From the NCBI RefSeq assembly GCF_003018235.1, contig NZ_CP027437.1: a DNA stretch of 64,000 nt; one strand, given 5' to 3'. Below are positions 2,548 through 45,674 of this stretch, piece by piece (within the stretch, counting starts at the first letter, position 1; each line of letters begins with the position of its first letter). Origin of the DNA: Escherichia coli. GTDB taxonomy: Bacteria > Pseudomonadota > Gammaproteobacteria > Enterobacterales > Enterobacteriaceae. A program made the position numbers and the translations under genes. The notes beneath the pieces are model-generated. The model was given only the letters and a program-made list of their open reading frames with translations. It made no database searches and was not told the DNA's origin.

Positions 2548-2571
2548 TCCTTATACTGGAGGGATCTTAAT

Positions 2572-3663: not shown

Positions 3664-3674
3664 CCGGAGGCCCT

Positions 3675-4526: not shown

Positions 4527-4606
4527 TTCATTTTCTGTCATGGCCTTTATGCCAGTGCAATAACGCACCGGCAGGGCGGACTACACGCTGAAACTGGAGA
4601 TTTAAC

Positions 4607-5467: not shown

Positions 5468-5474
5468 GCCAGAA

Positions 5475-5495
5475 GGGCGGGGTGACCCGCCTTTT
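5475..5495 (+). terminator. GC-rich hairpin (GGCGGG-GTGA-CCCGCC) followed by TTTT between aldolase-2 and ROK kinase; possible intra-operon attenuator/partial terminator
   Basis: Inverted repeat read directly from sequence, T-run downstream. Confidence 0.35.
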
Positions 5496-5514
5496 ACGCA
5501 ACAAGGAACGAGAT

Positions 5515-7108: not shown

Positions 7109-7117
7109 TAACGGGGA

Positions 7118-7143
7118 ACGCTAGCGCTGATATCCGCTAGCGT
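7118..7143. terminator. Bidirectional hairpin terminator between convergent frz-like operon and yicH
   Basis: Perfect 9-bp inverted repeat ACGCTAGCG / CGCTAGCGT with 8-nt loop, followed by T-rich tract. Confidence 0.45.
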
Positions 7144-7151
7144 CCTTATTT

Positions 7152-24913: not shown

Positions 24914-25510
24914 TTACTGCAACTGTGCGGCAATTAGCGGCCAGCGGGCGTCAAAATCATCCGTCGGGCGGTATTTAAACTCGCTGCGGACAAAGCGTGA
25001 CAGCATACCTTCACAGAAGGCCAGGATCTGGCTTGCCAGCAGGGTTTCATCAGTGGTGTAACCTTCACCCTCACGCATTCTCTTTTCGCGCAATACCTGA
25101 CGCAACTGCGCTTCAATACGCTCGAACAGCTGGTTGATGCGCCCTTGCAGGCGATCCTGTTCAAACATTAGTGCATGACCAGTGAGGATGCGGGTCAGGC
25201 CAGGATTACGCTCACCAAAACCGAGAAGCAGCAACACAATCAGACGCAGGCGCGCTGTGGTGTCCTTCTCATCTTTCAGAATCAGATTGATGCGAGTAAT
25301 CAGGCTATCTTCGATAAACTCAATCAGGCTATCGAACATGCGGGTCTTACTGGGGAAGTGGCGATACAGTGCCGCTTCGGAAACGCCGACAGAGGCGGCC
25401 AGTTTTGCCGTCGTGATACGTTGGCTTCCATCGCTGGATTCCAGCATCAGCGCCAGAGACTGAAGTATTTCCTCGCGACGGTTCCTTTTCGCAGTTTGTT
25501 TTTCTGCCAT
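24914..25510 (-). CDS. slmA: Nucleoid occlusion factor SlmA (TetR family)
   Basis: 198 aa from [16 protein letters not shown]. Confidence 0.9.
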
Positions 25511-25616
25511 GTTACAAAATACCCCTGAAAATAAGCACTTGCCAGGCGGCACCCACGCTATGACCGCAAACGAAATGTTTGCGGCTATGTTATGACGTTA
25601 TTCGGATGCGTATGTG

Positions 25617-26075
25617 TTACTGACGACCAGAGTGACCAAAGCCGCCTTCACCGCGGTCGGTGGCGTCGAAATCTTCCACCAGATTAAATTCAGCCTGTAC
25701 TACCGGAACAAAAATCATCTGGGCGATGCGTTCGCCAGGTTGAATGGTGAAGCTGTCCTGACCACGGTTCCACACGGAAATCATCAACTGGCCCTGATAG
25801 TCGGAATCGATCAATCCTACCAGGTTACCAAGCACGATACCGTGCTTATGTCCCAATCCGGAGCGCGGCAGCATCATTGCCGCCAGTGAAGGATCGGCAA
25901 TATGAATCGCCAGCCCGGTCGGAACCAGCGTAGTGTCACCCGGAGCCAGTTCTACGGCGTCGTCGAGACAGGCACGCAGGTCAAGTCCGGCTGAGCCAGA
26001 GGTGGCATAAGTCGGGAGCGGAAATTCCTTCCCAACGCGCGGGTCCAGAATCTTAACGTCGATTTTTTTCATCAT
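25617..26075 (-). CDS. dut: dUTP diphosphatase
   Basis: 152 aa [15 protein letters not shown]. Confidence 0.95.
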
Positions 26076-27273
26076 AACGGGTCACGATCTCGTCGAGTAA
26101 TAATTGGCCAAGGAGCTCTTTGCGCTCAAGCGGTAAGACTTTATCTCCGTCCTGCCAGAAAAGGTGTAATGCGTTGTTGTCGCTGTTAAATCCTTGAGTT
26201 GGCTGGGAAACATCGTTCGCGCAGATCAGATCAAGGTTTTTACGGATACGTTTTTGCCGGGCGTATTCTTCCACATTATTTGTTTCGGCGGCAAATCCAA
26301 CGACGTAGGGTCGATGGTCTTTTAGTGCGGCAACGCCTGCGACGATATCGGGGTTTTTAACCATTTTTATTGTTAATTCATCACCCTGCGTGGCCTGCTT
26401 TTTGATTTTCTCTGGGGCCACGGTAGCTGCGCGATAATCCGCCACGGCGGCACAGCCGATAAAAATATTTTGCTGCTGTACAGAAGCATTCACGGCCGCT
26501 TCCATTTCCAGCGCGGTCATCACATCAACACGTTTAACAAACGGTGGCGTCGGTAGTGAAACCGGACCTGATACCAGCGTGACGTTCGCGCCACGACGGG
26601 CAGCGGCGGCGGCGATAGCAAAACCCATCTTGCCTGAGCTGTGATTAGAGATATAACGCACCGGATCGAGCGGTTCACGCGTCGGGCCGGCGGTAATCAT
26701 AATGTTCAGATGTTTCAGGTCGTTGACGGGCGAAAAATACGCTACCGCCATATCAACAATGGTTAACGGATCGAGCATTCGCCCAGGGCCGATATCACCA
26801 CAAGCCTGACTGCCACTGTCTGGCCCCCAGATGAGCAAACCACGGGAAGCAAGCACCTCTAAATTATGCTGCGTGGCAGCGGCACGGTACATCTGCTGGT
26901 TCATGGCGGGGAGCACGGCTACAGGCGCAGGTGTGGCCAGACAAATCGTCGATACCAGATCATTCGCCATTCCGGCAGCAACACGGGCAATCAAATCTGC
27001 CGTGGCAGGGGCGAGAATCACTAAATCAGCCCATTTACCCAGCTCAATATGGCCCATAGCGGCTTCGGCTGCCGGGTCCAGCAGACTGTCGGAAACGGGA
27101 TAACCAGAAACCGCCTGCAAGCTAAGTGGGGTGATAAAGGCTTTTGCCGCTTCGGTCATGGCTACGCGGACGTCGGCCCCGCGATCGCGCAAACGACGCA
27201 CCAGTTCAGGGGTTTTATAGGCAGCAATACCGCCGCTGACGCCGAGAACGATTTTTTTACCGGCCAGGCTCAT
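26053..27273 (-). CDS. coaBC: Bifunctional phosphopantothenoylcysteine decarboxylase / phosphopantothenate-cysteine ligase
   Basis: 406 aa from [20 protein letters not shown]; overlaps dut start. Confidence 0.9.
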
Positions 27274-27438
27274 GATGATTTTTCCTGTTGGGTGACACCA
27301 GAAGTTGGCGATTTTATCACAATACTTTTGTTGTCGTGCCTTCACCTGAGAATCACTTTGCGAGGCGCTTTCCAGGATTGAAAACTGGCCGTCGATTTAA
27401 CGGAACGGCTATGACAGGATGCGAGCACCACAAAGGAG

Positions 27439-28113
27439 GTGAAGGTGAAAAACAATGCACAGCTGTTGATGCCGCGCGAAAAAATGCTGAAGTTTGGTAT
27501 TAGCGCCTTAACGGATGTCGAGCTGCTGGCGCTATTTCTGCGTACCGGAACGCGCGGTAAAGATGTGTTAACCCTGGCAAAAGAGATGCTGGAGAGTTTC
27601 GGCTCTCTTTATGGCTTGTTAACTTCTGAATATGAACAATTTAGTGGCGTTCATGGAATTGGCGTGGCGAAATTTGCCCAGTTAAAGGGGATTGCCGAAC
27701 TGGCGCGGCGTTACTACAACGTGCGGATGCGTGAAGAAAGCCCGTTACTCAGCCCGGAGATGACGAGGGAATTTTTACAAAGTCAGCTCACGGGCGAGGA
27801 GCGGGAGATCTTTATGGTGATCTTTCTCGACTCCCAACACAGGGTTATAACGCATAGCCGTCTTTTTTCCGGCACGCTAAACCATGTTGAAGTCCATCCT
27901 CGGGAAATTGTCCGTGAAGCAATAAAAATAAATGCCTCGGCGCTGATCCTTGCACATAATCACCCTTCGGGTTGTGCTGAACCCAGTAAAGCGGATAAAC
28001 TCGTCACCGAACGGATAATAAAAAGTTGTCAGTTCATGGATTTACGCGTGCTCGACCATATCGTGATTGGGCGTGGAGAGTATGTTTCTTTTGCCGAACG
28101 CGGCTGGATTTAA
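27439..28113 (+). CDS. yicR: RadC-like JAB-domain protein (UPF0758)
   Basis: 224 aa; HNHPSG JAMM motif. Confidence 0.85.
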
Positions 28114-28308
28114 CCCGCTATGCGCGATCCTTCGGGATCTTTGTCTGTTCGGGACTTGAGCACATCGCTGAGTCAGCGTATACTACGCCACCTTTGAGAA
28201 TCTCGGGTTTGGCATTTGGGCCTGGCAATCGAGAGTTCACATAGAACTGCGATGACCGGGCTGTAAAGCCTGACGAGGCGCCAATACCCCATACGAAGCT
28301 CGAGCTAA

Positions 28309-28566
<258 letters not shown>

Positions 28567-28583
28567 GTACTTAGAGGAAATAA

Positions 28584-28754
<171 letters not shown>

Positions 28755-28778
28755 TTCTCGCTTTGATGTAACGAAAAA

Positions 28779-28800
28779 CCTCGCTCCGGCGGGGTTTTTT
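28779..28800 (+). terminator. Rho-independent terminator after rpmG
   Basis: 6-bp stem (one G-U) with UCCG tetraloop followed by T6. Confidence 0.6.
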
Positions 28801-28851
28801 GTTATCTGCCTGCCCCCATATTGATTGCATCTGTTCATTCCTGGAGATGCT

Positions 28852-29661
28852 ATGCCTGAATTACCCGAAGTTGAAACCAGCCGTCGCGGCATAGAACCGC
28901 ATCTCGTTGGTGCAACCATTCTTCATGCGGTGGTGCGCAACGGACGCTTGCGCTGGCCGGTTTCAGAAGAGATCTACCGTTTAAGCGACCAACCAGTGCT
29001 TAGCGTGCAGCGGCGGGCTAAATATCTGCTGCTGGAGCTGCCTGAGGGCTGGATTATCATTCATTTGGGGATGTCTGGCAGCCTGCGCATCCTTCCAGAA
29101 GAACTTCCCCCTGAAAAGCATGACCATGTTGATTTGGTGATGAGCAACGGTAAAGTGCTGCGCTACACCGATCCGCGCCGCTTTGGTGCCTGGCTGTGGA
29201 CCAAAGAGCTGGAAGGGCATAATGTGCTGGCCCATCTTGGACCGGAGCCGCTTAGCGACGATTTCAACGGTGAGTATCTGCATCAGAAGTGCGCGAAGAA
29301 AAAAACGGCGATTAAACCGTGGCTGATGGATAACAAGCTGGTGGTAGGGGTAGGGAATATCTATGCCAGCGAATCTCTGTTTGCGGCGGGGATCCATCCG
29401 GATCGGCTGGCGTCATCACTGTCGCTGGCAGAGTGTGAATTGTTAGCTCGGGTGATTAAAGCGGTGTTGCTGCGTTCGATTGAGCAGGGTGGTACAACGC
29501 TGAAAGATTTTCTGCAAAGTGATGGTAAACCGGGCTATTTCGCGCAGGAATTGCAGGTTTACGGGCGAAAAGGCGAGCCGTGTCGGGTGTGCGGTACGCC
29601 GATTGTGGCGACTAAACATGCGCAGCGGGCAACGTTTTATTGTCGGCAGTGCCAGAAGTAA
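28852..29661 (+). CDS. mutM: Formamidopyrimidine-DNA glycosylase
   Basis: 269 aa from [14 protein letters not shown]-terminal zinc finger CRVCGTP...CRQC. Confidence 0.9.
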
Positions 29662-29670
29662 TTGATGCGA

Positions 29671-29692
29671 GCCGGATGGCATACCATCCGGC
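29671..29692. repeat. REP-like palindrome / bidirectional terminator between mutM and coaD
   Basis: GCCGGATGG-CATA-CCATCCGGC perfect inverted repeat. Confidence 0.4.
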
Positions 29693-29699
29693 ATAAACG

Positions 29700-31464
<1,765 letters not shown>

Positions 31465-31788
31465 AGTAAATAGCTGACTTATGGATGTGCTGGGGATTCT
31501 ATGTATTTAGCTGTGGCTTTACCATTACTTTTCCCGTTTTTGACTTAAATAGCAATTTACCCGCCAATTCTTGCTGAACATCTATACTTTTTTTGTATTT
31601 TTATGCGATTCATTGATTTCTGCAGTACGTGCAGGAAGGAATCGCAGAGCAACAGTGAAAGAATATGGTTGCTAATGATTTTATTTGATTGATTTCTTTA
31701 TTGAAAATCAACAATGTGCTTAAAAATCATTCGGGTCGGATTGCCGCGAAAGAAGTGATACACTAGCGCGTCAATATCAGTGCGGTAT

Positions 31789-31827
31789 CAGTATTCAGGT
31801 AGCTGTTGAGCCTGGGGCGGTAGCGTG
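31789..31827 (+). promoter_or_regulatory. JUMPStart sequence with ops element (GGCGGTAGCGTG at 31816-31827) in waaQ operon leader; RfaH antitermination site
   Basis: Exact match to the ops consensus GGCGGTAGnnTG, about 50 nt upstream of waaQ. Confidence 0.7.
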
Positions 31828-31876
31828 CTTTTTCTGCTTCACCTTAATCGGATAATCTCAACAAAAAGAGTTACTT

Positions 31877-32935
31877 GTGGATAAGCCATTTCGAAGAATT
31901 TTGCTCATTAAGATGCGTTTTCATGGGGATATGTTATTAACTACTCCCGTCATTAGTTCGCTGAAAAAAAATTACCCTGACGCAAAAATCGATGTGCTGC
32001 TTTATCAGGACACCATCCCGATCCTGTCTGAAAATCCAGAGATTAACGCGCTCTACGGCATAAAAAATAAAAAAGCAAAAGCCTCAGAAAAAATCGCCAA
32101 CTTTTTTCATCTCATCAAGGTATTACGTGCCAATAAGTATGACCTTATCGTCAATCTTACCGATCAATGGATGGTTGCTATACTGGTTCGCTTATTAAAT
32201 GCCCGTGTGAAAATTTCCCAGGATTATCATCATCGGCAGTCTGCTTTTTGGCGTAAAAGTTTCACCCATTTGGTGCCGTTGCAGGGTGGAAATGTGGTGG
32301 AAAGTAACTTATCCGTGCTGACACCATTGGGACTTGATTCGTTGGTGAAGCAGACAACCATGAGTTACCCGCCTGCAAGCTGGAAACGTATGCGTCGCGA
32401 ACTTGATCACGCTGGTGTTGGACAAAATTATGTGGTTATCCAACCTACGGCGCGGCAAATCTTCAAATGCTGGGACAACGCCAAGTTTTCCGCTGTGATT
32501 GATGCCTTACATGCTCGTGGTTATGAAGTCGTTCTGACGTCCGGCCCAGATAAAGACGATCTGGCCTGCGTCAATGAAATTGCGCAGGGATGCCAGACGC
32601 CACCAGTAACGGCGCTGGCCGGAAAGGTGACCTTCCCGGAACTTGGTGCGTTAATCGATCATGCGCAGCTGTTTATTGGCGTTGATTCCGCACCGGCGCA
32701 TATTGCCGCAGCAGTTAATACGCCGCTGATATCGCTGTTTGGTGCGACAGACCATATTTTCTGGCGTCCCTGGTCAAATAACATGATTCAATTCTGGGCG
32801 GGAGATTACCGGGAAATGCCAACGCGCGATCAGCGTGACCGAAATGAGATGTATCTTTCGGTTATTCCGGCGGCAGATGTCATTGCTGCTGTCGATAAAT
32901 TACTGCCCTCCTCCACGACAGGTACGTCGTTATGA
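31877..32935 (+). CDS. waaQ: LPS heptosyltransferase III
   Basis: GT9 heptosyltransferase; start ambiguous (GTG 31877, TTG 31901 or ATG 31913). Confidence 0.85.
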   Translation: MDKPFRRILLIKMRFHGDMLLTTPVISSLKKNYPDAKIDVLLYQDTIPILSENPEINALYGIKNKKAKASEKIANFFHLIKVLRANKYDLIVNLTDQWMVAILVRLLNARVKISQDYHHRQSAFWRKSFTHLVPLQGGNVVESNLSVLTPLGLDSLVKQTTMSYPPASWKRMRRELDHAGVGQNYVVIQPTARQIFKCWDNAKFSAVIDALHARGYEVVLTSGPDKDDLACVNEIAQGCQTPPVTALAGKVTFPELGALIDHAQLFIGVDSAPAHIAAAVNTPLISLFGATDHIFWRPWSNNMIQFWAGDYREMPTRDQRDRNEMYLSVIPAADVIAAVDKLLPSSTTGTSL

Positions 32936-34056
32936 TCGTTGCTTTTTGTTTATATAAATATTTTCCCTTTGGCGGTTTGCAGCGCGATTTTATGCGTATT
33001 GCTCAGACAGTCGCCGCCCGAGGTCATCATGTTCGGGTTTATACCCAGTCGTGGGAAGGCGAATGCCCTGATGTATTTGAACTGATCAAAGTGCCGGTTA
33101 AATCGCATACCAATCACGGGCGCAATGCGGAGTATTTTGCCTGGGTGCAAAAACATTTACGCGAACATCCCGTCGATAAAGTCGTTGGATTCAACAAAAT
33201 GCCGGGGCTGGACGTTTATTATGCCGCTGATGTTTGTTATGCCGAGAAAGTAGCGCAGGAGAAAGGCTTTTTCTATCGCCTGACGTCACGTTATCGCCAT
33301 TATGCCGCCTTTGAGCGGGCAACCTTCGAACAGGGTAAGCCGACACAGCTGCTGATGCTGACAGATAAGCAAATCGCCGATTTCCAGAAACATTATCAGA
33401 CTGAAGCGGAGCGTTTTCATATTCTGCCACCGGGGATTTACCCTGATCGTAAATATAGCCAGCAGCCAGCCAATAGCCGTGAAATCTTCCGTAAGAAGAA
33501 TGGAATAACCGAACAGCAATATTTATTGTTGCAGGTCGGTTCAGACTTCACGCGTAAAGGTGTCGATCGTTCCATTGAAGCACTTGCTTCGTTACCGGAT
33601 TCGCTGCGCCACAACACATTGCTATATGTTGTTGGGCAGGATAAACCGCGAAAATTTGAGGCGCTGGCAGAAAAACGCGGCGTGCGCAGTAATGTTCACT
33701 TCTTCTCGGGGCGCAACGATGTCTCGGAATTAATGGCGGCGGCGGATTTATTACTGCATCCTGCCTACCAGGAAGCGGCGGGAATTGTGCTGCTGGAAGC
33801 GATTACTGCAGGATTACCGGTACTAACAACAGCCGTTTGTGGCTATGCGCCTTATATTGTCGAGGCCAATTGCGGCGAGGCTATTGCTGAGCCATTCCGC
33901 CAGGAAACATTGAATGAGATTTTACGCAAAGCGTTAACGCAATTTTCATTGCGCCAGGCCTGGGCGGAAAATGCGCGACATTATGCTGATACACAAGATT
34001 TATACAGTCTGCCAGAGAAAGCGGCGGACATCATAACGGGTGGTCTGGATGGTTGA
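32932..34056 (+). CDS. waaG: LPS glucosyltransferase I (GT4)
   Basis: 374 aa [20 protein letters not shown]. Confidence 0.95.
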
Positions 34057-34846
34057 ACTTAAAGAGCCGTTTGCCACGTTATGGCGCGGAAAAGATCCTT
34101 TTGAGGAAGTTAAAACTTTGCAGGGTGAGGTATTTCGTGAACTGGAAACTCGCCGTACTCTACGCTTTGAAATGGCGGGCAAAAGCTATTTTCTCAAATG
34201 GCATCGCGGCACGACCCTGAAAGAGATAATCAAAAATTTACTCTCATTGCGGATGCCAGTATTAGGCGCAGACCGCGAATGGAATGCGATTCATCGACTG
34301 CGGGATGTCGGCGTTGATACTATGTATGGGGTGGCATTCGGCGAAAAAGGCATTAATCCGCTCACCAGAACCTCGTTTATTATAACCGAAGATCTGACAC
34401 CAACCATCAGTCTGGAAGATTACTGTGCTGACTGGGCGACTAACCCACCAGATGTTCGCGTAAAGCGTATGCTTATTAAGCGTGTCGCGACGATGGTGCG
34501 CGATATGCATGCTGCGGGCATTAACCACCGTGACTGTTATATCTGTCATTTCCTGCTGCACTTGCCTTTTTCCGGTAAGGAAGAGGAGTTAAAAATTTCG
34601 GTAATTGACCTGCACCGGGCGCAGCTTCGCACGCGCGTTCCACGTCGTTGGCGCGATAAAGATCTTATAGGGCTTTATTTTTCTTCGATGAATATTGGCC
34701 TGACTCAGCGGGATATCTGGCGGTTTATGAAAGTGTATTTTGTCGCCCCGCTTAAAGACATTCTCAAGCAGGAACAAGGGCTGCTGTCGCAAGCAGAAGC
34801 AAAAGCCACAAAAATCAGGGAAAGAACGATTAGAAAATCGTTGTAA
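34049..34846 (+). CDS. waaP: LPS core heptose(I) kinase
   Basis: 265 aa from [20 protein letters not shown]. Confidence 0.9.
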
Positions 34847-34888
34847 CCCGTAACTTATTTTTGCCAAAATTTTGGATACAGAATAAAT

Positions 34889-35896
34889 ATGTCTCAACTC
34901 AATGATAGTGACATCATCCTTTTTGAGTATAACTTTCATTATCAAAATATAAGATCTAAAAATACTCTTGATATCGCATTTGGTATTGACAGAAATTTTC
35001 TTTTTGGATGTGGTGTAGCCATCGCATCTATTCTATTAAACAATAGCGAAATCTCTTGTGAATTTCATGTTTTCACAGATTATATCAGTGATAAAGACAA
35101 GTTATATTTTTCCGATTTAGCAAAACAATATAATTCAAGAATTAATATTTATGTAATCAATTGTGATAAACTGAAGTCATTACCAAGCACGAAAAACTGG
35201 ACTTACGCAACATATTTTCGATTTATAATTGCAGATTATTTCTATCATAAACATGAAAAAATACTATATCTTGATGCAGATATTGCTTGCAAGGGTAGTA
35301 TTAAAGAACTCTTAGATTATCAATTTTCTCCTAATGAAATTGCCGCAGTTGTAGCTGAAAGAGATGTTGAATGGTGGCAAAATCGAGCCTCGGTATTAAC
35401 TACACCACAGTTAGCTTCTGGATATTTCAATGCTGGTTTTTTACTGATAAATATTGATGAGTGGAATCTAAATAACATTTCGTCAAAAGCTATTGAAATG
35501 TTGCGTGATCCAGATTGGGTAAGTAAAATTACCCACCTTGATCAAGATGTACTGAATGTATTATTGAATGGTAAAGTGAAGTTTATTTCGGGGAAATATA
35601 ATACCCGATATAGTATTAACTACGAATTAAAAGACAAAGTTGATAATCCAGTCAATGATGACACCGTGTTTATACACTATGTGGGACCTACAAAACCCTG
35701 GCATGAGTGGGCTGATTATCCGGTGTCACGTAGTTTTTTGATCGCCAAGGCAGCTTCTCCGTGGAGTAAAGAAGATTTACTTAAACCTGTAAATAGCAAT
35801 CAGTATCGGTATTGTGCAAAACATAAATTTAAACAAAAGCATTATATGGCAGGCATTTTTAATTATTTAAAGTATTATAAAGAAAAATGTTTCTAA
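34889..35896 (+). CDS. waaI: LPS outer-core alpha-1,3-hexosyltransferase (GT8)
   Basis: 335 aa; GT8 motifs (YLDADI, HY.G..KPW); low GC; symbol assumes R3-type order. Confidence 0.65.
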   Translation: MSQLNDSDIILFEYNFHYQNIRSKNTLDIAFGIDRNFLFGCGVAIASILLNNSEISCEFHVFTDYISDKDKLYFSDLAKQYNSRINIYVINCDKLKSLPSTKNWTYATYFRFIIADYFYHKHEKILYLDADIACKGSIKELLDYQFSPNEIAAVVAERDVEWWQNRASVLTTPQLASGYFNAGFLLINIDEWNLNNISSKAIEMLRDPDWVSKITHLDQDVLNVLLNGKVKFISGKYNTRYSINYELKDKVDNPVNDDTVFIHYVGPTKPWHEWADYPVSRSFLIAKAASPWSKEDLLKPVNSNQYRYCAKHKFKQKHYMAGIFNYLKYYKEKCF

Positions 35897-35921
35897 AGAT
35901 TTAAGGTTAAAATAATTCATT

Positions 35922-36629
35922 ATGATATATAATAAAACGATAAACGGATTGAAAGTTTTCATAAAAGATAATGATCCCTTTTATGAGCAAGTTCTGAATG
36001 ACTTTTTAACTTGCAGGGTTAAAACATTAAAAGTTTTTCGTTCTATTGATGATACTAAAGTCATTCTTATTGACACTGCTCGTGGACCTCTTGTACTTAA
36101 AGTTTATGCGCCAAAGCATAAAATGATCGAACGTTTCTTAAAATCTTGCATAAAAAAAGATTATTATGAAAATTTAATTTATCAAACCGATCGGGTACGT
36201 GGTGAAGGCGTTCAATCAATTAATGACTATTTTTTGCTTGCTGAACGTAAAACATTAAATTTCGCGCATTATTATATTATGCTCATTGAGTATATTGAAG
36301 GTGTCGGGTTAAATGAGTATTTGGAAATTTCTGAAGATCTGAAGGATCAATTATCAGAATCGATAAAAGAGCTGCATCAGCATGGAATGGTGTCTGGCGA
36401 TCCTCATAAAGGAAATTTTATAGTATCCGAAAAAGGTTTAAGACTAATTGACCTTTCAGGTAAAAAAACAACCGCTGTTTTAAAAGCAAAAGATCGCATT
36501 GATCTTGAACGGCACTATAATATAAAAAATGAATTGAAAGACTTTGGCTATACATATCTTATATTCAAAAAGAAAATTAAAAAAGTAATCAGGGATGTAA
36601 AAGTCAAACTAGGATTGAAGAGCAAATAA
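35922..36629 (+). CDS. waaY: LPS core heptose(II) kinase
   Basis: 235 aa WaaY/Kdo-kinase-like protein between two GT8 genes. Confidence 0.75.
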   Translation: MIYNKTINGLKVFIKDNDPFYEQVLNDFLTCRVKTLKVFRSIDDTKVILIDTARGPLVLKVYAPKHKMIERFLKSCIKKDYYENLIYQTDRVRGEGVQSINDYFLLAERKTLNFAHYYIMLIEYIEGVGLNEYLEISEDLKDQLSESIKELHQHGMVSGDPHKGNFIVSEKGLRLIDLSGKKTTAVLKAKDRIDLERHYNIKNELKDFGYTYLIFKKKIKKVIRDVKVKLGLKSK

Positions 36630-36653
36630 TGATTATGATGAAGGGTAATTAAA

Positions 36654-37667
36654 TTGGATTTTAAACATCTTACTCAATTTAAAGATATAATTGAACTGGA
36701 CAAGCGCCCTGTTAAACTTGATGAACGGGAAACGTTTAATGTCTCATGGGGTATTGATGAGAACTACCAGGTAGGGGCTGCGATTTCAATTGCTTCAATT
36801 CTTGAAAATAATAAACAAAACAAATTTACCTTTCACATAATCGCTGATTACTTAGACAAAGAGTATATTGAATTATTATCACAATTAGCAACGAAGTATC
36901 AAACAGTAATTAAATTATATCATATTGATTCTGAGCCATTGAAGGCGCTACCTCAATCAAATATCTGGCCAGTATCTATTTATTATCGTTTGCTTTCATT
37001 TGATTATTTTTCTGCGCGATTGGATTCATTATTATATCTTGATGCTGATATCGTCTGTAAGGGTTCATTGAACGAGTTAATAGCATTAGAGTTTAAAGAT
37101 GAATATGGGGCTGTGGTAATTGATGTAGATGCTATGCAAAGTAAAAGCGCTGAGCGTTTATGTAATGAGGATTTTAACGGTAGCTATTTTAACTCTGGTG
37201 TAATGTATATTAATTTACGGGAATGGTTACAACAAAGACTAACGGAGAAATTCTTTGATCTATTATCAGATGAGTCAATTATCAAAAAATTAAAGTATCC
37301 GGATCAAGATATTTTAAACTTAATGTTTTTACATCATGCTAAAATATTACCGAGAAAATATAATTGTATTTATACTATAAAGTCAGAATTTGAAGAAAAA
37401 AATAGTGAATATTACACCCAGTTTATTAATGATGAAACTGTCTTCATACATTATACTGGTGTAACTAAGCCATGGCATGATTGGGCGGACTACGCATCTG
37501 CAGATTATTTCCGTAATATTTATAATATATCTCCATGGAGAAATATACCTTATAAAAAAGCTGTTAAAAAACATGAGTACAAAGAAAAATATAAACACTT
37601 GCTTTACCAGAAAAAATTTCTCGATGGTGTTTTTACAGCAATTAAATATAATGTTATGAAAGGTTAA
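36654..37667 (+). CDS. waaJ: LPS outer-core alpha-1,2-glycosyltransferase (GT8)
   Basis: 337 aa; GT8 motifs; paralog of preceding GT8. Confidence 0.65.
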   Translation: MDFKHLTQFKDIIELDKRPVKLDERETFNVSWGIDENYQVGAAISIASILENNKQNKFTFHIIADYLDKEYIELLSQLATKYQTVIKLYHIDSEPLKALPQSNIWPVSIYYRLLSFDYFSARLDSLLYLDADIVCKGSLNELIALEFKDEYGAVVIDVDAMQSKSAERLCNEDFNGSYFNSGVMYINLREWLQQRLTEKFFDLLSDESIIKKLKYPDQDILNLMFLHHAKILPRKYNCIYTIKSEFEEKNSEYYTQFINDETVFIHYTGVTKPWHDWADYASADYFRNIYNISPWRNIPYKKAVKKHEYKEKYKHLLYQKKFLDGVFTAIKYNVMKG

Positions 37668-37675
37668 TACTCGAG

Positions 37676-38818
37676 ATGGTTGATAAAATAATATTTACAG
37701 TCACTCCTATTTTTTCAATTCCTCCTCGCGGAGCGGCCGCTGTTGAAACGTGGATGTATCAGGTTGCTCAGCGTACCAATTTCCCAAATCGTATTGTTTG
37801 TATCAAGAATCCAGGATACTCAAATTACACCTTTGTTAATGATAATTGTAGTATTCATAGGGTTGGATTCAGTCGCATATATAAGCGGTTATTTCAAAAA
37901 TGGACAAGACTTGATCCTCTTCCATATTCACAGAGAATATTGAATATTGCCCATGATTTTCCTATAACGAAAGAAAGTGTTATTGTAGTTCATAATAGCA
38001 TGAAACTATACACTCAAATTCGTAAGCGAGCTCCTCAGGCAAGAGTGGTTATTCATATGCATAATGCATTTGAACCAAAATTGCTTGAGCAAAATGTTAA
38101 AATGATAGTGCCTAGTTTATACTTGAAAAAGTATTACCAATCTTATTTAGCAAATGCAGATATTGAGATTGTACCAAATGGAATTGATTTAGAAACCTAT
38201 CAATCTACTTTTCAGCCGATCACTAGAAGCGAACTTAATATCTCCCCTGAAGAGAAAATTATTTTTTATGCTGGGCGTATCGTCCCTGATAAAGGCATAT
38301 TACTGTTGATGCAATCATTCGAAAAATTGGCCGCTGCTCACAAAAATTTAAAATTAGTTGTGATTGGTGATTATACAGAAATGAGTAAAAGTGACAAAGG
38401 TGCATATCAACGCAATGTCAGGGAAATTGCAAAACGTTTGAAGGATCGTTGCATTATGTTAGGAAGCATACCGCCTGAAAATATGCATTGTTATTACCCA
38501 CTGGCGGATTTAGTCGTCATTCCTTCCCAGTTCCAGGAACCATTTTGCATGGTGGCAATTGAAGCTATGGGGGCTGGTAAGCCTGTTTTAGTGAGTACGC
38601 GTGGGGGGATGACGGAATTTGTCAAAGAAAATACTACGGGATTCCATTTAAAAGAACCTATGACTGCAGACTCCATAAGCAGCGATATTTTAAAAACGTT
38701 AGCGAATCCTGAATTAACAGCAGTTGCAAAGCAAGGTCAGGATTTTGTGTTTGATCACTACAGTTGGGATGGCGTAACTCAAAGATTTGAAGAGGTTATT
38801 CATAATTGGTTTGAATAA
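37676..38818 (+). CDS. waaD: LPS outer-core glycosyltransferase (GT4; WaaD/WaaK-like)
   Basis: 380 aa; GT4 C-terminal EX7E-type region; last gene before waaL; symbol tentative. Confidence 0.55.
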   Translation: MVDKIIFTVTPIFSIPPRGAAAVETWMYQVAQRTNFPNRIVCIKNPGYSNYTFVNDNCSIHRVGFSRIYKRLFQKWTRLDPLPYSQRILNIAHDFPITKESVIVVHNSMKLYTQIRKRAPQARVVIHMHNAFEPKLLEQNVKMIVPSLYLKKYYQSYLANADIEIVPNGIDLETYQSTFQPITRSELNISPEEKIIFYAGRIVPDKGILLLMQSFEKLAAAHKNLKLVVIGDYTEMSKSDKGAYQRNVREIAKRLKDRCIMLGSIPPENMHCYYPLADLVVIPSQFQEPFCMVAIEAMGAGKPVLVSTRGGMTEFVKENTTGFHLKEPMTADSISSDILKTLANPELTAVAKQGQDFVFDHYSWDGVTQRFEEVIHNWFE

Positions 38819-38825
38819 ATAAAAA

Positions 38826-38848
38826 GGCCGCATTATGCAGCCTTTTTA
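38826..38848. terminator. Bidirectional terminator between convergent waaD-like gene and waaL
   Basis: A5-GGCCGCA...TGCAGCC-T5 hairpin (one mismatch) flanked by A and T runs. Confidence 0.45.
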
Positions 38849-38852
38849 TTTT

Positions 38853-40061
38853 TTACTTGTTTTTCATCGCTAATAATAAGCCGGCGTAAACACCTAATAA
38901 ATTTGGTTCAATTTGTTCTACGTTTCCACGGATAACAAAATAACCTATAAAAGATAGTAAGATTATATAATATGCATTATATGGTGAGCGGTATTTATTC
39001 TGGACGCCATTTTTTATACACTCTTTCAATATTGCACAGTATAGCATCATAAGACTTACCAGCCCTAATAAACCAGTGCCAAACCAGATGAATAGCGCAA
39101 AATTATGTGGCCCTATTGATTGTCTAAAGGTCCATTCTGGATAATCAACGACACGTTTATTATAGACATCTTTATATGCAACGTTACCGTAACCATAACC
39201 AATAACAGGATTCTCTAATATTAGATCGAGTGCGCTGCCTTGAGTACCATTTGCATAGCGATAAGAACTATTAGTTTGTTGAAGTTTATACGTTAGCTTT
39301 GCGGTCATCTCCTTATGTGTGAAAATAACCGACAATGCAATGATGGAAACCATTACTCCTACTAATAGTAACTTCCATTGTTTAAACATCAGAATCCATA
39401 TTAATCCAATGACTAACACGGAAAGCCAGGCCCCTCTGGATAAAGTTCCTAATATCAGAAAAATAAAAATAAAGCTTAGAACCACAAAAGAAATGCGGTA
39501 TTTTGCTGATTTGATAAGCCAGAGATTTAACAATGCAGGGAATAAAAAGACCATCGAGTCAGAAATGCTACGGTGTCTATAATCTGCGAATGGCATTATC
39601 CCTTGTTGATAGTCCTTATAATAGGCAATCAATTCAGAAAAACAGCGTAAGCCCAACGCACTAATAAATGAGAAGAAAACGATTTTTTCGACATCTTCTC
39701 TTTTCTCGTCTCTCAATATGACTGGTATTGCTATTGTGCATAGTAAAGTATTCTCAATAATAGCTTTGAAAATTTCCTTCATGCTAGCCCCTGCATCAGG
39801 GGATTGAAGAAGTGACAGCAATGCAGCAATAGTTAATATGGCAACACTACCAAAAAGAAATGTTTTAAATAGTGAGAGATAATGTTTTGGCCGTTTGCAG
39901 AGATAGACGATTGTCGTTATTGTCATAAGAATAACGATAAGATGTTTATACCTTGTAATCCCACCCAAAAAATAGGTGGTAATGAATAAGAATACGAGAG
40001 CTCTGTTCCAGTACGCTATCCAGTTTTTTTTCTCGAGAGAGAAAAATAATGTTGAGGTCAT
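38853..40061 (-). CDS. waaL: O-antigen ligase
   Basis: 402 aa polytopic membrane protein in the conserved waaL position; start overlaps waaC stop (ATGA). Confidence 0.8.
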   Translation of the reverse strand: MTSTLFFSLEKKNWIAYWNRALVFLFITTYFLGGITRYKHLIVILMTITTIVYLCKRPKHYLSLFKTFLFGSVAILTIAALLSLLQSPDAGASMKEIFKAIIENTLLCTIAIPVILRDEKREDVEKIVFFSFISALGLRCFSELIAYYKDYQQGIMPFADYRHRSISDSMVFLFPALLNLWLIKSAKYRISFVVLSFIFIFLILGTLSRGAWLSVLVIGLIWILMFKQWKLLLVGVMVSIIALSVIFTHKEMTAKLTYKLQQTNSSYRYANGTQGSALDLILENPVIGYGYGNVAYKDVYNKRVVDYPEWTFRQSIGPHNFALFIWFGTGLLGLVSLMMLYCAILKECIKNGVQNKYRSPYNAYYIILLSFIGYFVIRGNVEQIEPNLLGVYAGLLLAMKNK

Positions 40062-41050
40062 CTTATCTCCGATGTCAACTTATTGGTTATTATTTCAAGA
40101 TTTAAATTTTGAAAAACGGTTTGAGCTGGCAAATCTGCAAGAGACATACTTGTAGAACGACACTCTACTTGATTCTTCCCATACCCACCAATTAATCCAG
40201 GATCGGTTGGTCCATAAACCGTGATATTGGGTCTATCCAGTGCCGCCGTTAAATGGCTTAACCCCGTATCCACCGACACTACAAATTTAGCCCCGGCCAG
40301 CACGCGGGCAACGCCTTCCAGACTCATCTTCGGCAATACTTCAACATAAGCAAATCCTTCCGCCAGTCGTTTCGCCCGTTCTTCCTCATGCGGCGCGCCC
40401 CACGGAAGTTTAATCCGTATTCCTGAATCAGCCAGTAAACCAATCAATTCTCGCCAGTGTTCTTCCGGCCAGTGTTTATCATCTCGGGTTGTTGCATGAA
40501 GAAATACGGCATATTCGCCAGCATCTGTAGGCAGGTTCGTCAGGAAATGCTGTGCGATAGCATAATCGCCCTGGGTTTGTGGTTTGCTATAGCCCAGACT
40601 TTTGGCAAACAGTTCGCGGGTGCGTTCTACGGCGTGCTGCTGTTTTGCAATATGATGCTTACGATTGTAAAACAGGCTGGCTAAAGGTTCGCGAGCGGTT
40701 TGCCAGTCCATTCCATGCTTTACGCCATGCGCCAGACGCGTCACCAGCGCCGCGCTTTTTACCAGCCCCTGAGCGTCGATAACTGCGTCATAGTTCTCTG
40801 CTTGTAGCGCTTCACGAAACGCTTTCCGTTCAGCTTTTATGGGGGCCGAGAACCAGGCTTTACGCCAGCGACGTATTGCCACAGGAATAACTCGCTCAAC
40901 AGCGGCGTGCCAGGAAGGAATTTGTGCGAACCCTTCTTCCACCACCCAGTCAAACTTAATCCCCGGGATTGCCTGCTGGGCATCAGTGAGTGCGGGCAAC
41001 GTATGGAGAACATCGCCCATCGACGATGTTTTAACGATCAAAACCCGCAT
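40058..41050 (-). CDS. waaC: LPS heptosyltransferase I
   Basis: 330 aa MRVLIVKTSSMGDVLHTLPALTDA; C-terminal ~30 aa appear to differ from the K-12 protein as remembered. Confidence 0.9.
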   Translation of the reverse strand: MRVLIVKTSSMGDVLHTLPALTDAQQAIPGIKFDWVVEEGFAQIPSWHAAVERVIPVAIRRWRKAWFSAPIKAERKAFREALQAENYDAVIDAQGLVKSAALVTRLAHGVKHGMDWQTAREPLASLFYNRKHHIAKQQHAVERTRELFAKSLGYSKPQTQGDYAIAQHFLTNLPTDAGEYAVFLHATTRDDKHWPEEHWRELIGLLADSGIRIKLPWGAPHEEERAKRLAEGFAYVEVLPKMSLEGVARVLAGAKFVVSVDTGLSHLTAALDRPNITVYGPTDPGLIGGYGKNQVECRSTSMSLADLPAQTVFQNLNLEIITNKLTSEIR

Positions 41051-41053
41051 CCG

Positions 41054-42100
41054 TCAGGCTTCCTCTTGTAACAATAGCGCGTTAAGTTCTTCCAGTACGC
41101 GCTGGGGAGTAATGTCGATCAAGCTCTGGTGATAACCCTCCGCAGCGTCACCTTTACGCACTTTGTGATAGCCGGTAATCAGGCGGATCACGCGTGCTTT
41201 ATGGGATAGCGGCGGTGTGAAGTCCGGGCTACTCGGACCATACAAGGCAACCAGCGGACGATTGAGCGCCGCCGCAACGTGCATCAGGCCAGAATCGTTA
41301 GTGACAATGGCTTTACAGGCTGTAATCAGGATAACCGCTTGATCAAGCTGTGTTTCCCCTGCCAGGTTCCGGCACCATGCCTGCTGCTCGGTATTTAAAG
41401 CGGCAAGAATCTCATTGCCCGCTTCATGATCTTTCGCCGAGCCAAACAGAACCACCTGATAACCTTCATCAATCAGCTGCTTTGCCAGCTCCGCATAGTG
41501 GTAGTGTGGCCAGCGTTTTGCCGGACCAAACTCCGCACCCGGGCAAAAGCCAATCATCGGACGTTCTGATGAAAGCGAAAATTGATTACAGGTATATGAT
41601 TTTTCACCTTCGCTCACCTGCAACTGCGGCCATAACAATGGCTGCGGCAGATCTTGTGCTGTACGCATAATGCCTTTGTCATAGGCCAGCGCGACATAGC
41701 GTTCCACCATTAGCGGCCAGGCTTCTTTATCGAGCACGCGTACATCGTTAAGTAAACCGTAGCGCATCTCGCCGCGCCAGCCGGTGCGATGAGGAATACC
41801 CGCGAAGAAAGGCACTAATGCGGATTTGAAGGAGTTGGGTAAGACGTAGGCGCGGTCGTAGCGCTTTTCACGCAGACTATGACCCAGTTTGCGGCGTTCG
41901 CCGATTTCCAGCGCTCCGTGACCGAGAGGCATAGGAATAGCTTCGTTAACTTCCGGCATCCGCGATAATAATGGACGGCACCATGCCGGTGCCATCACGT
42001 CGATTATCGCCTGGGGATAGCGCGCCTGGAGCGTGCGATAGAGACTTTGCGACATCATCATGTCGCCAACCCAAGACGGGCCGATCACCAGTATTTTCAT
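41054..42100 (-). CDS. waaF: LPS heptosyltransferase II
   Basis: 348 aa MKILVIGPSWVGDMMMSQSLYRTL. Confidence 0.9.
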   Translation of the reverse strand: MKILVIGPSWVGDMMMSQSLYRTLQARYPQAIIDVMAPAWCRPLLSRMPEVNEAIPMPLGHGALEIGERRKLGHSLREKRYDRAYVLPNSFKSALVPFFAGIPHRTGWRGEMRYGLLNDVRVLDKEAWPLMVERYVALAYDKGIMRTAQDLPQPLLWPQLQVSEGEKSYTCNQFSLSSERPMIGFCPGAEFGPAKRWPHYHYAELAKQLIDEGYQVVLFGSAKDHEAGNEILAALNTEQQAWCRNLAGETQLDQAVILITACKAIVTNDSGLMHVAAALNRPLVALYGPSSPDFTPPLSHKARVIRLITGYHKVRKGDAAEGYHQSLIDITPQRVLEELNALLLQEEA

Positions 42101-42109
42101 GCAGAGCTC

Positions 42110-43042
42110 TTATGCGTCGCGATTCAGCCAGGCCATGTATTCCGTTACACCTTCAGCAACGGTTTTGAACGGTTTATCGTAACCCGCCGCGCGCAGATTC
42201 GTCAGATCTGCCTGAGTGAACGCCTGGTAGCGGCCTTTCAGTTTATCCGGGAACGGAATGTATTCGATCTGGCCTTTCTTGTGATAAGCCAGCGTAGCAT
42301 CGGCTACCGCCTGGAAGGATTCCGCACGACCGGTGCCGAGGTTGAAGATGCCGGAAACGCCATTTTCCAGGAACCACAGGTTTACATCTGCCACGTCGCC
42401 TACGTAAACGAAGTCGCGTTTGAAGTTCTCGCTACCTTCAAACAGCTTCGGCGATTCACCGTTGTTAAGCTGAGTGTTGAGATGGAAAGCGACGCTCGCC
42501 ATGCTGCCTTTATGGCCTTCACGCGGTCCATAAACGTTGAAATAGCGGAAGCCAACAATCTGCGAGTTCGCTTCTGGCAGGATTTGACGAACATATTCAT
42601 CAAACAGGAATTTTGAGTAACCGTAGACGTTCAACGGTTTTTCGTACTCGCGGGATTCAATAAAGTCGGAGGTGCGACCGCCGTAAGTGGCCGCGGAAGA
42701 GGCATACAGGAACGGGATTTCGCGTTCCAGACAGTAGTGCAGCAGCTCTTTGGAGTATTGATAGTTGTTATCCATCATATACTTGCCATCCCACTCGGTG
42801 GTGGAAGAGCATGCGCCTTCGTGGAAAATCGCTTCGACATCACCGAACTCTTCGCCAGCCATAATCTGGATCAGGAAGTCTTCCTTATCCATATAGTCCG
42901 CGATATCCAGATCCACCAGGTTCACAAACTTGGTGCCGTCTTTCAGGTTGTCCACCACCAGAATATCGGTGATGCCTTTATCATTCAGGGCCTTAACGAT
43001 GTTGCTGCCGATAAAGCCCGCGCCGCCGGTAACGATGATCAT
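42110..43042 (-). CDS. hldD: ADP-L-glycero-D-manno-heptose 6-epimerase
   Basis: 310 aa [23 protein letters not shown] (Rossmann). Confidence 0.95.
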
Positions 43043-43345
43043 AACTGTAACCTTCGAATTATGGAGTCAGAGACAATCTCAGACACGAATGTCTGTAATC
43101 ATACCATCACATCCGAATCCCTTCAGCCCTTTACATAGAGGTGCAAGGATGCTAATTGCAACAAACTAGTTTGGGTTTTAGCTAGTCCTTCATGGCGGAT
43201 GTTGGTTTTGTATGTGAATAGTGCTTTAGTATCAATATTCCGATGTATGATAAATAACGGAAGCATTTGAATGGATAATATACAGTATACATTCTGTTAA
43301 TATTTATGATATAATTCTTTTTTTATATTAATGGTCTTATTAGTA

Positions 43346-44203
43346 ATGAAATCATCCACCACAATTATCACTGCATATTTTGACATTGGTAGAGGGGATT
43401 GGACTGCTAATAAAGGGTTCCGTGAAAAACTAGCTCGTTCAGTTGATGTTTATTTTAGTTACTTTGAGCGTCTGGCCGCACTTGAAAATGAGATGATTAT
43501 TTTCACTTCTCCCGATTTGAAACCAAGGGTTGAAGCGATTCGCAACGGAAAACCAACAACGGTTATCGTTATCGATATAAAAAAGAAATTTAGATATATC
43601 AGAAGTCGTATCGAAAAAATTCAAAAAGATGAGTCGTTTACAAATAGACTTGAGCCTCGACAATTAAAAAACCCAGAGTACTGGTCACCAGAGTATGTTT
43701 TGGTATGTAACCTTAAGGCCTATTTTGTAAATAAAGCTATCAACATGGGCTTAGTGAAAACTCCTCTTGTTGCGTGGATAGATTTTGGCTATTGCCGTAA
43801 GCCAAATGTAACTCGAGGATTGAAAATTTGGGATTTCCCATTTGATGAAAATAAGATGCATCTTTTCACTATAAAAAAAGGGCTTACTGTCACATCTCAA
43901 CAACAGGCTTTTGATTTCATGATTGGCAATCATGTATATATTATTGGTGGCGCAATTGTTGGTTCACAGCATAAATGGAAAGAATTCTATAAATTAGTTC
44001 TGGAAAGTCAAAAAATAACCCTAAACAATAACATTGTGGACGATGACCAGGGCATCTTTGTCATGTGCTATTACAAACGTTCCGATCTCTTCAACCTAAA
44101 CTATCTGGGGAGAGGAAAATGGTTCGATTTGTTTCGCTGCTTCAGGAGTAACACTTTAGGGGCAAAAATGCAGGCGCTGAGAATTTTCCTTTCAAGAAAA
44201 TAG
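43346..44203 (+). CDS. htrL: HtrL/YibB-family protein
   Basis: 285 aa from MKSSTTIITAYFDIGRGDW; low-GC gene. Confidence 0.8.
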   Translation: MKSSTTIITAYFDIGRGDWTANKGFREKLARSVDVYFSYFERLAALENEMIIFTSPDLKPRVEAIRNGKPTTVIVIDIKKKFRYIRSRIEKIQKDESFTNRLEPRQLKNPEYWSPEYVLVCNLKAYFVNKAINMGLVKTPLVAWIDFGYCRKPNVTRGLKIWDFPFDENKMHLFTIKKGLTVTSQQQAFDFMIGNHVYIIGGAIVGSQHKWKEFYKLVLESQKITLNNNIVDDDQGIFVMCYYKRSDLFNLNYLGRGKWFDLFRCFRSNTLGAKMQALRIFLSRK

Positions 44204-44250
44204 GTTTCCCTCCATTAGTGGGTAGCGTTTTGATACCAAATGAGATTGGA

Positions 44251-44277
44251 AAAATGATGCTCTGGCATCATTTTTTC
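44251..44277 (+). terminator. Rho-independent terminator after htrL
   Basis: AAAATGATGC-TCTG-GCATCATTTT hairpin followed by T-run. Confidence 0.5.
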
Positions 44278-44477
44278 TTTTTATATCAATGCAGTAAAAT
44301 CACTCATCATTATGCCCAGCCAAAACTGTACAGTTTTTCTACTATCTATAGGTGTTGAGAGACATCAAGATTCACGTTATTTATCCTGAATTTTGCAGAA
44401 GTGTTAACGCGTCATCTCGTCGCGACCTATAAGTTTGGGTAATATGTGCTGGAATTTGCCCTGTCTGGAGAATCGCA

Positions 44478-45674
44478 ATGCGTGGAGAATTTTATCAGCA
44501 GTTAACCAACGATCTGGAAACCGCACGGGCGGAAGGGTTGTTTAAAGAAGAGCGCATTATTACGTCTGCGCAGCAAGCAGATATCACTGTGGCTGATGGA
44601 AGCCACGTCATTAACTTTTGTGCCAATAACTATCTCGGACTGGCGAATCATCCGGATCTGATTGCGGCGGCAAAGGCGGGAATGGATTCTCACGGTTTCG
44701 GCATGGCTTCGGTGCGTTTTATTTGCGGCACTCAGGACAGCCATAAAGAGCTTGAACAAAAACTGGCGGCCTTCCTGGGGATGGAAGATGCGATTCTCTA
44801 CTCTTCCTGCTTTGATGCTAACGGTGGCCTGTTCGAAACGCTGTTAGGCGCGGAAGACGCCATTATCTCCGACGCACTGAACCACGCGTCTATTATTGAT
44901 GGTGTGCGTCTGTGCAAAGCTAAACGCTATCGTTATGCCAACAACGATATGCAGGAGCTGGAAGCACGTCTGAAAGAAGCGCGTGAAGCCGGTGCGCGTC
45001 ATGTGCTGATTGCCACCGATGGTGTGTTCTCGATGGACGGCGTGATTGCCAACCTGAAAGGTGTTTGCGATCTCGCAGATAAATATGATGCCCTGGTGAT
45101 GGTAGATGACTCACACGCGGTAGGTTTTGTCGGTGAAAACGGTCGTGGTTCCCATGAATACTGCGATGTGATGGGCCGGGTCGATATTATCACCGGCACG
45201 CTCGGTAAAGCGCTGGGCGGGGCTTCTGGTGGTTATACCGCGGCGCGCAAAGAAGTGGTTGAGTGGCTGCGCCAGCGTTCTCGTCCGTACCTGTTCTCCA
45301 ACTCGCTGGCACCGGCCATTGTTGCCGCTTCCATCAAAGTGCTGGAGATGGTTGAAGCGGGTAGCGAGCTGCGTGACCGTCTGTGGGCGAACGCGCGTCA
45401 GTTCCGTGAGCAAATGTCGGCGGCGGGCTTTACCCTGGCGGGAGCCGATCACGCCATTATTCCGGTCATGCTTGGCGATGCGGTAGTAGCGCAGAAATTT
45501 GCTCGTGAGCTGCAAAAAGAGGGGATTTACGTCACCGGTTTCTTCTATCCGGTCGTTCCGAAAGGTCAGGCGCGTATTCGTACCCAGATGTCTGCGGCGC
45601 ATACCCCTGAGCAAATTACGCGTGCAGTAGAAGCATTCACGCGTATTGGTAAACAACTGGGCGTTATCGCCTGA
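44478..45674 (+). CDS. kbl: 2-amino-3-ketobutyrate CoA ligase (glycine C-acetyltransferase)
   Basis: 398 aa; PLP-dependent enzyme. Confidence 0.95.

Follow-up and report, generated by a model that had tools for sequence, protein, structure and literature searches.

The window analysed here is a 64,000-nucleotide stretch of Escherichia coli DNA in which waaA and waaQ are transcribed divergently from a common spacer. In the list of open reading frames, waaA occupies 30187..31464 on the minus strand and waaQ, which begins with a GTG start codon, occupies 31877..32935 on the plus strand; the same boundaries, under the names waaA and rfaQ/waaQ, are found in the PGAP annotation of the near-identical genomes of strain 7/2, Z1323HEC0462 and O157:H7. 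Because waaA starts at 31464 and the waaQ GTG lies at 31877, the spacer extends over 31465-31876 and measures 412 bp, and the divergent 412-bp region described in the initial annotation is therefore delimited alike by the open reading frames and by the PGAP annotations of relatives. Its description as AT-rich is equally accurate, with a GC content of 38.3% in the spacer against 50.1% in the window as a whole. The features of the locus to which we refer throughout are as follows.

30187..31464, minus strand: coding sequence of waaA (Kdo transferase), which bounds the spacer on its left, from the open reading frame list and PGAP.

31465..31550, minus strand: waaA-proximal conserved block, comprising a putative waaA promoter and a short leader.

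31554..31720, no strand assigned: variable AT-rich spacer, 55% identical to K-12.

31727..31765, plus strand: promoter block of waaQ/rirA, in which TGaTACACT at 31756-31764 forms an extended -10, the -35 is poor and a conserved TCGGATTG lies at about 31735-31743.

31771..31842, plus strand: RirA homolog, 72 nt here and 73 nt in K-12 (rirA b4760), with its 5' end at the inferred waaQ transcript start.

31779..31833, plus strand: predicted extended RNA hairpin (31779-31829) and T-run (31829-31833), MFE -19.3 kcal/mol.

31789..31827, plus strand: JUMPstart (RF01707), with an inner 5-bp hairpin in which 31796-31800 are paired to 31810-31814.

31816..31827, plus strand: ops, the RfaH loading and pause site, an exact match, with base positions assigned according to Zuber et al. 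2018 (PMC5995543).

31863..31879, plus strand: weak Shine-Dalgarno-like motif and start, AAAAAGAG, with AAGAG at 31866-31870, a 6-nt spacer and the GTG of waaQ.

31877..38818, plus strand: waaQ operon, waaQ-waaG-waaP-waaO-waaY-GT8 glucosyltransferase-GlcNAc transferase, from open reading frames, annotations and the GC profile.

38820..38853, no strand assigned: bidirectional terminator-like hairpin, A5-GGCCGCA-TTA-TGCAGCC-T5AT5, with one stem mismatch, in the 34-nt gap to the convergent rfaL.

The position of the waaQ start determines the length of the spacer and of the leader. The K-12 RefSeq record places the start at an ATG further inside this frame, at codon 13 counted from the GTG and equivalent to window position 31913. 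The peptide V-(D/E)-K-P-F-R-(K/R)-I-L-x-I-K, read from the GTG (window 31877-31915), is kept across genera with synonymous changes, and because these N-terminal codons are conserved as coding, the GTG start and the 412-bp figure that follows from it are the better reading; judged from this conservation, the K-12 waaQ start is probably annotated too far downstream. The AAGAG and the GTG are invariant in the 44 aligned species, those without ops included, and the duplex energy of the waaQ site with the anti-Shine-Dalgarno sequence is only -2.4 kcal/mol. Reviews state that the waaQ operon 'lacks a ribosome-binding site', a wording that is too strong because the invariant AAGAG precedes the GTG. 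Between the T-run (31829-31833) and the AAGAG the leader sequence is variable.

Downstream of this start the operon comprises seven genes in 6.9 kb, which match O157:H7 both in their order and in their lengths; O157:H7 has the R3 core type. Its gene junctions are tight, consisting of overlaps or gaps of 8-42 nt. GC content lies at 30-37% from about 34500 to 40000, where the distal operon genes are found, and the gene set at the operon position differs by strain, with the K-12 type, another set in strain 7/2 and the O157 type here. The drop in GC and the alternative gene sets among E. coli strains fit the earlier statement that the operon includes horizontally acquired outer-core genes. The operon sense strand contains 18% C, similar to the value of 17.4% given for the K-12 operon (PMC5449661). 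Predicted Shine-Dalgarno pairing has a median of -3.7 kcal/mol in the operon genes compared with -6.0 kcal/mol in 18 neighbouring genes, a difference that amounts to a trend only (one-sided p = 0.057). Beyond the operon end lie the convergent genes rfaL-rfaC-rfaF-rfaD, and the hairpin between the two transcription units (38820-38853) was found by eye, with weak Rfam terminator-type matches at the same place; a simple terminator scan missed it because its stem has one mismatch.

Two further observations concern sequence on either side of the operon. A second low-GC island (35-40% GC) at 43000-44500 contains yibB (htrL) and lies beside the rfaD (hldD) promoter region. At the other end of the window, the segment of the matching reference genome that corresponds to about 980-7900, assumed to be collinear, carries a cluster of a PTS fructose-family transporter, an aldolase and a sugar isomerase together with a BglG-type antiterminator, between yicI and yicH.

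To obtain per-column conservation of the spacer, we aligned it with K-12 and 43 other Enterobacteriaceae species, the species set being drawn from a WaaQ-based scan with one genome per species. The 85-bp block at 31465-31550, which directly precedes the waaA start codon, is 100% identical to K-12, shows about 90-100% column identity in the 44 species and is better conserved than most of the spacer. Read on the waaA strand, it contains AAAAGTAATGGTAAAGCC-N4-GCTAAATACATAGAATCCCCAGCACAT, of which AAAAGTAATGGTAAAGCC is invariant and lies upstream of a -10-like TAGAAT (31501..31496), so placed that it is plausible as the -10 element of the waaA promoter. Two copies of GCTATTTA are found 79 bp apart within the same block, and the predicted fold of the block is no better than that of shuffled sequences. 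Reg-Seq assigned one activator site, for a factor not identified, to waaA-coaD (PMC7567609); for MarA, binding to the kdtA region has been observed in vitro, with no effect (PMC12052159). Our own marbox search was uninformative, with 122 matches against 143 expected, and only 3-mismatch matches fall in the spacer. Sites for sigma-32, sigma-E, sigma-54 and IHF were sought in the conserved blocks by eye, by comparison with their consensus sequences, and no convincing match emerged.

The centre of the spacer is far more variable. Of 5426 complete E. coli genomes, 4468 carry the allele present in the window, each in one copy, and for this reason we do not regard it as a mobile element; a repeat search of the spacer returned short AT-rich repeats only. 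Small open reading frames of 20-34 aa are listed in the spacer, with no supporting evidence for any of them. Inside the variable stretch a sub-block at 31587-31616 (TTTTTTTGTATTTTTATGCGATTCATTGA) is conserved in Escherichia, Citrobacter, Salmonella and Pluralibacter. The waaP-to-rfaL segment of the window is matched at all in 4468 E. coli genomes, the same number as for the central-spacer allele, which suggests that the spacer allele is linked to the R1/R3/R4-like operon family and not to the K-12/R2-like one. Compared with K-12 the spacer as a whole is a mosaic, identical on the waaA side, 55% identical in the centre, 94% identical in the island that runs from the promoter to ops and 60% identical in the rest of the leader (31834-31876).

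On the waaQ side the extended -10, in the form TGnTACA(C/A)T, is invariant in the 44 species. The annotated K-12 rirA/waaQ 5' end, mapped by alignment, falls on window position 31771, 7 nt after the extended -10, and from this correspondence we infer that the waaQ transcript starts at about 31771. Divergent kdtA/rfaQ promoters were reportedly described by Clementz in 1992. A generic sigma-70 scan of 31300-32000 called two sites where 1.3 are expected, both in non-conserved spacer and neither of them the conserved promoter. In K-12, genomic SELEX placed sigma-70 holoenzyme peaks, together with H-NS, in the divergent waaQ-waaA spacer (PMC3946193), and these peaks, the conserved extended -10 before waaQ and the TAGAAT block beside waaA agree with the divergent promoters that the initial annotation had proposed.

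The exact 12-nt ops element GGCGGTAGCGTG occurs once in the window, at 31816-31827 on the plus strand, which is the waaQ sense strand; by our own arithmetic the chance expectation for an exact 12-mer is about 0.008 in 128 kb of two-strand sequence. When one mismatch is allowed, two further sites appear, at 2024 (+) and 26738 (-), where shuffled sequences give an expectation of 0.29. The window copy conforms exactly to the 12-nt consensus GGCGGTAGnnTG. Zuber et al. 2018 defined the requirements of ops as a C3:G8 pair, a G4-A7 loop, a flipped T6 and a pause at T11 G12 (PMC5995543), and every base position named in that work is present here, with C3 and G8 at 31818 and 31823, T6 at 31821 and the pause dinucleotide at 31826-31827. 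The surrounding sequence is a full-length match to the Rfam JUMPstart family RF01707 at 31789-31827 (+), covering model positions 1-38 of 38 with 55.2 bits and E = 2e-10, where the gathering score is 35 bits; it lies in the 5' UTR of the LPS core operon that runs from waaQ-waaG-waaP onward. In a search of 25000-45000 at E <= 1, JUMPstart was the sole credible Rfam match, the others being sub-threshold terminator look-alikes. A motif search had been proposed as the check on an exact ops at this position and on a JUMPstart around it, and it recovers both, with the unique exact ops nested in a complete JUMPstart. The element is on the non-template strand, 45 nt past the inferred transcript start and 49 nt upstream of the waaQ GTG, and because the K-12 rirA/waaQ 5' end maps to 31771, upstream of ops, the element lies within the transcribed leader.

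Similar sequences occur in coding regions nearby. The one-mismatch site at 26738-26749 (-), GGCGGTAGCGTA, in which G12 is replaced by A, is on the sense strand within the coaBC coding region, and strain 7/2 also has the core there. Some Salmonella and Kluyvera carry an exact GGCGGTAG core antisense in the 5' end of waaA (equivalent to about window position 31335, + strand), where the window has GGCGGTAA; the coding sequence itself most likely accounts for this antisense core.

Conservation of the signal in the waaQ leader extends well beyond this strain. Of the 5426 complete E. coli genomes, 5424 contain a 47-nt JUMPstart/ops segment at a coverage of at least 80%, with an identity of 99% or more in 4906 records, and the number of JUMPstart-like places per E. 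coli genome has a median of 2 and a maximum of 4. In a set of 71 Enterobacterales loci, one per species, the ops core lies no more than 150 nt upstream of waaQ in 46 and the full GGCGGTAGnnTG in 45, with a spacing from ops to start codon of 43-50 nt in 39 of the ops-bearing loci. Columns 31771-31833 are near-invariant in the 44-species alignment and the flanks vary; likewise, between the window and K-12 alleles of the E. coli spacer, the promoter-JUMPstart-ops island is 94% identical compared with 55% and 60% on its two sides, a difference that argues for purifying selection on the island. Several lineages depart from this arrangement. In Siccibacter turicensis and S. colletis the waaQ promoter and the AAGAG-GTG are kept and JUMPstart/ops is wholly absent, and Kluyvera intermedia and K. 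cryocrescens have, about 60 nt upstream of waaQ, a decayed ops (AGCGGTAGCGTA and AGCAGTAGCGTA) that scores below the Rfam threshold. No ops is found near waaQ in Providencia, Moellerella or Arsenophonus, where waaQ does not have waaA as its divergent neighbour; the JUMPstart of Brenneria and Superficieibacter is separated from waaQ by 1.3-1.5 kb on the upstream side.

The same leader contains a homolog of the small RNA RirA. Positions 31771-31842 align end to end with K-12 rirA, with 5 substitutions and one T fewer, and reviews describe the RirA 5' end as common to the waaQ mRNA. According to reviews of work in K-12, RirA binds RfaH together with polymerase in an ops-dependent manner, and its overexpression mimics an rfaH deletion (PMC5736990, PMC6358824). 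Neither the RirA annotation of the waaQ leader nor the invariant AAGAG was mentioned in the initial annotation. Our reading of the literature turned up no paper that links rirA to Term-seq. The discoverers of RirA are said to attribute it to processing.

We also examined the predicted RNA structure of this segment. The long hairpin is 51 nt in length and imperfect; it encloses JUMPstart and ops, its 3' arm consists of the end of ops followed by CU, and U5 comes directly after it. The leader does not fold with a better energy than shuffled sequences do (z = -0.66). In 41 distinct Enterobacteriaceae leaders, standard pairs make up 95.6% of the pair cells, compared with 28-56% in slid controls; the outer stem and the inner JUMPstart hairpin also emerge independently from RNAalifold, and by our own count on the alignment about 36 of the 41 keep the T-run. 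Changes in the free 5' arm are mostly one-sided, from U.G to C-G or from G.U to A-U. Support from conservation is moderate, because only 3 pairs show double changes and the structure tested was derived from one aligned sequence. RirA is annotated to end 13-14 nt beyond the stem, and a simple terminator scan of the spacer called none.

Taken together, these features lead us to conclude, with a probability of about 0.93, that the waaQ leader in this strain is the canonical E. coli JUMPstart/ops signal that recruits RfaH for the whole operon, and nothing found in the sequence argued against this explanation. In MG1655, waaQ heads the waa operon under RfaH control (PMC5449661), and the waa operon is a named target of RfaH in K-12, where loss of RfaH results in truncated LPS (PMC5449661, PMC6358824). 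RfaH ChIP-seq signal was recorded at rfa in CFT073, under H-NS/StpA filaments (PMC9765446), and the native waaQ ops has served as a strong pause in single-molecule work in vitro (PMC13192885). The RfaH-dependent antitermination of the waaQ operon that the initial annotation had put forward is thus established in K-12 and CFT073 (PMC5449661, PMC6358824, PMC9765446) and, because rfaH lies outside the window, is inferred for the present strain by homology. Of the traits that mark RfaH targets, the 6.9-kb length, the distal GC of 30-37% and the alternative gene sets are all seen here, and weak ribosome-binding sites appear as the trend given above (p = 0.057). The involvement of H-NS and Rho at the waa operon is taken from the literature (PMC5449661, PMC3946193, PMC9765446).

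The accepted mechanism, applied to this leader, would begin with a sigma-70 promoter whose extended -10 would start the transcript at about 31771. Polymerase would reach ops after 56 nt and pause at T11 (31826), whereupon the exposed non-template strand would fold into a small hairpin closed by the C3:G8 pair, with T6 flipped out. Autoinhibited RfaH would then bind the ops hairpin, open, and remain on the polymerase in place of NusG. The polymerase so modified is expected to resist pausing, Rho and the roadblocks formed by H-NS/StpA, while the refolded C-terminal domain of RfaH would recruit the ribosome and help at weak ribosome-binding sites. All seven genes over 6.9 kb, the outer-core genes of 30-37% GC included, would in this way be transcribed as far as the terminator at about 38820-38853. 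A further product of the leader would be the short RNA RirA; in K-12 this RNA binds RfaH and, when overproduced, dampens the activity of RfaH.

RirA is the basis of the strongest competing explanation, namely that the leader is chiefly the gene for this small RNA, which would titrate or inactivate RfaH as a negative feedback on LPS synthesis, antitermination of waaQ being secondary. K-12 RefSeq annotates the 73-nt rirA exactly here, the window copy differs from it by just 5 substitutions and 1 nt, and the predicted long hairpin is conserved; the reported phenotypes, however, come from overexpression, and in paused complexes it is the non-template DNA of ops that RfaH recognises (PMC5995543). 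We place the likelihood of this explanation somewhat short of even, and because the RNA and DNA roles are not exclusive, the role of RirA is best regarded as a layer added to antitermination and not as its replacement. A further proposal would join the two roles through an RfaH-sensitive attenuator, in which the hairpin at 31779-31829 and the T-run at 31829-31833 stop unmodified polymerase and release a RirA-like RNA, while RfaH-loaded polymerase reads through. The U5 directly after the hairpin, the pairing held in 95.6% of cells over 41 leaders and the T-run retained in about 36 of them all favour such a device, as does the K-12 rfb JUMPstart, which has a similar hairpin followed by no T-run and so makes the T-run specific to waaQ, the locus that yields RirA. 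Against this proposal, the fold energy does not stand out from shuffles (z = -0.66), double changes are confined to 3 pairs of a structure that was derived from one aligned sequence, and the hairpin is long and interrupted by internal loops, unlike typical terminators, so that the simple scan called none; moreover, the stem and the annotated RirA 3' end are 13-14 nt apart and not 7-9 nt. In view of this distance and of a hairpin that does not resemble a usual terminator, we consider an attenuator unlikely. The fuller version, a self-contained feedback device in which JUMPstart, ops and the T-run would form an attenuator that terminates RfaH-less polymerases and makes RirA, which would in turn titrate RfaH, is a speculative proposal to which we give equally little credence; if it were true, Siccibacter, which has lost the whole module, and the two Kluyvera species in which it has decayed would be lineages with rewired control of the LPS core.

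The remaining alternatives leave a smaller role, or none, to the leader signal. The distal outer-core genes might be expressed mainly from internal promoters, with the leader signal of minor importance for them. Internal promoters do exist in the K-12 operon, one example being the MarA-activated promoter upstream of rfaY (PMC12052159), and for that reason distal expression need not rest on read-through alone. Loss of RfaH nevertheless truncates the LPS core and is phenocopied by a polar insertion in waaQ (PMC5449661), deletion of rfaH leads to premature termination in CFT073 targets (PMC9765446) and the gene junctions are tight, with overlaps or gaps of 8-42 nt, all of which makes internal promoters quite improbable as the main source of distal expression. 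Near-matches to ops do arise in coding regions, as at 26738-26749 in coaBC, and RfaH ignores 22 such coding-region sites in CFT073 (PMC9765446), observations that would be in keeping with a functionless chance occurrence. The element in the waaQ leader, however, is an exact 12-mer inside a 55-bit JUMPstart match, it occupies a fixed position in 45 species and almost no E. coli genome lacks it; the conservation data refute the chance explanation, the probability of which we regard as negligible.

Recruitment of RfaH by a canonical JUMPstart/ops leader therefore remains our preferred explanation, and it explains the expression of a long, AT-rich LPS core operon that is sensitive to H-NS and Rho. 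It supplies the correct label for one of the best-studied bacterial antitermination signals, which is useful in annotation and opens no new question. The parts that might repay work are the conserved hairpin and T-run around ops, which bear on how RirA is made, and the lineages without the signal.

Leader-recruited processivity factors of this general kind are known from other bacteria, where Bacteroides UpxY and Bacillus LoaP, operon-specific NusG paralogs, make long polysaccharide or secondary-metabolite operons processive; the proteins and the recognition elements differ from those considered here, and the likeness is one of analogy and not of membership. The other RfaH targets hly, kps and tra are closer, in that an ops in the 5' leader recruits RfaH to long, H-NS-bound, horizontally acquired operons, although the operons and leaders are different and the likeness is by description. 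The leader of rfbB in K-12, which serves the O-antigen rfb cluster, has an identical 12-nt ops and the same inner hairpin, is likewise RfaH-dependent and forms a comparable long hairpin, in which the 3' end of ops is paired to bases that precede JUMPstart; unlike the waaQ leader it has no T-run after ops, its flanks are different and no small RNA is annotated there. Closest of all is the K-12 waaQ (rfaQ) leader, which shares the locus, the orientation and the architecture, with ops, the JUMPstart hairpin, the extended -10 and AAGAG-GTG identical and the island from promoter to ops 94% identical. The differences include 5 substitutions and one T fewer in the RirA segment, the 167-bp upstream spacer, which is the other allele (55% identity) though the majority one (4468 of 5426), and a downstream operon of the O157/R3 type in place of the K-12 type. 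JUMPstart/ops sites were reportedly described by Hobbs and Reeves in 1994 and by Bailey and colleagues in 1997. With ops, JUMPstart and RirA all recognisable in its sequence, the leader in the window is the orthologue of the K-12 waaQ/rfaQ leader and belongs among the classic, already known JUMPstart/ops sites.
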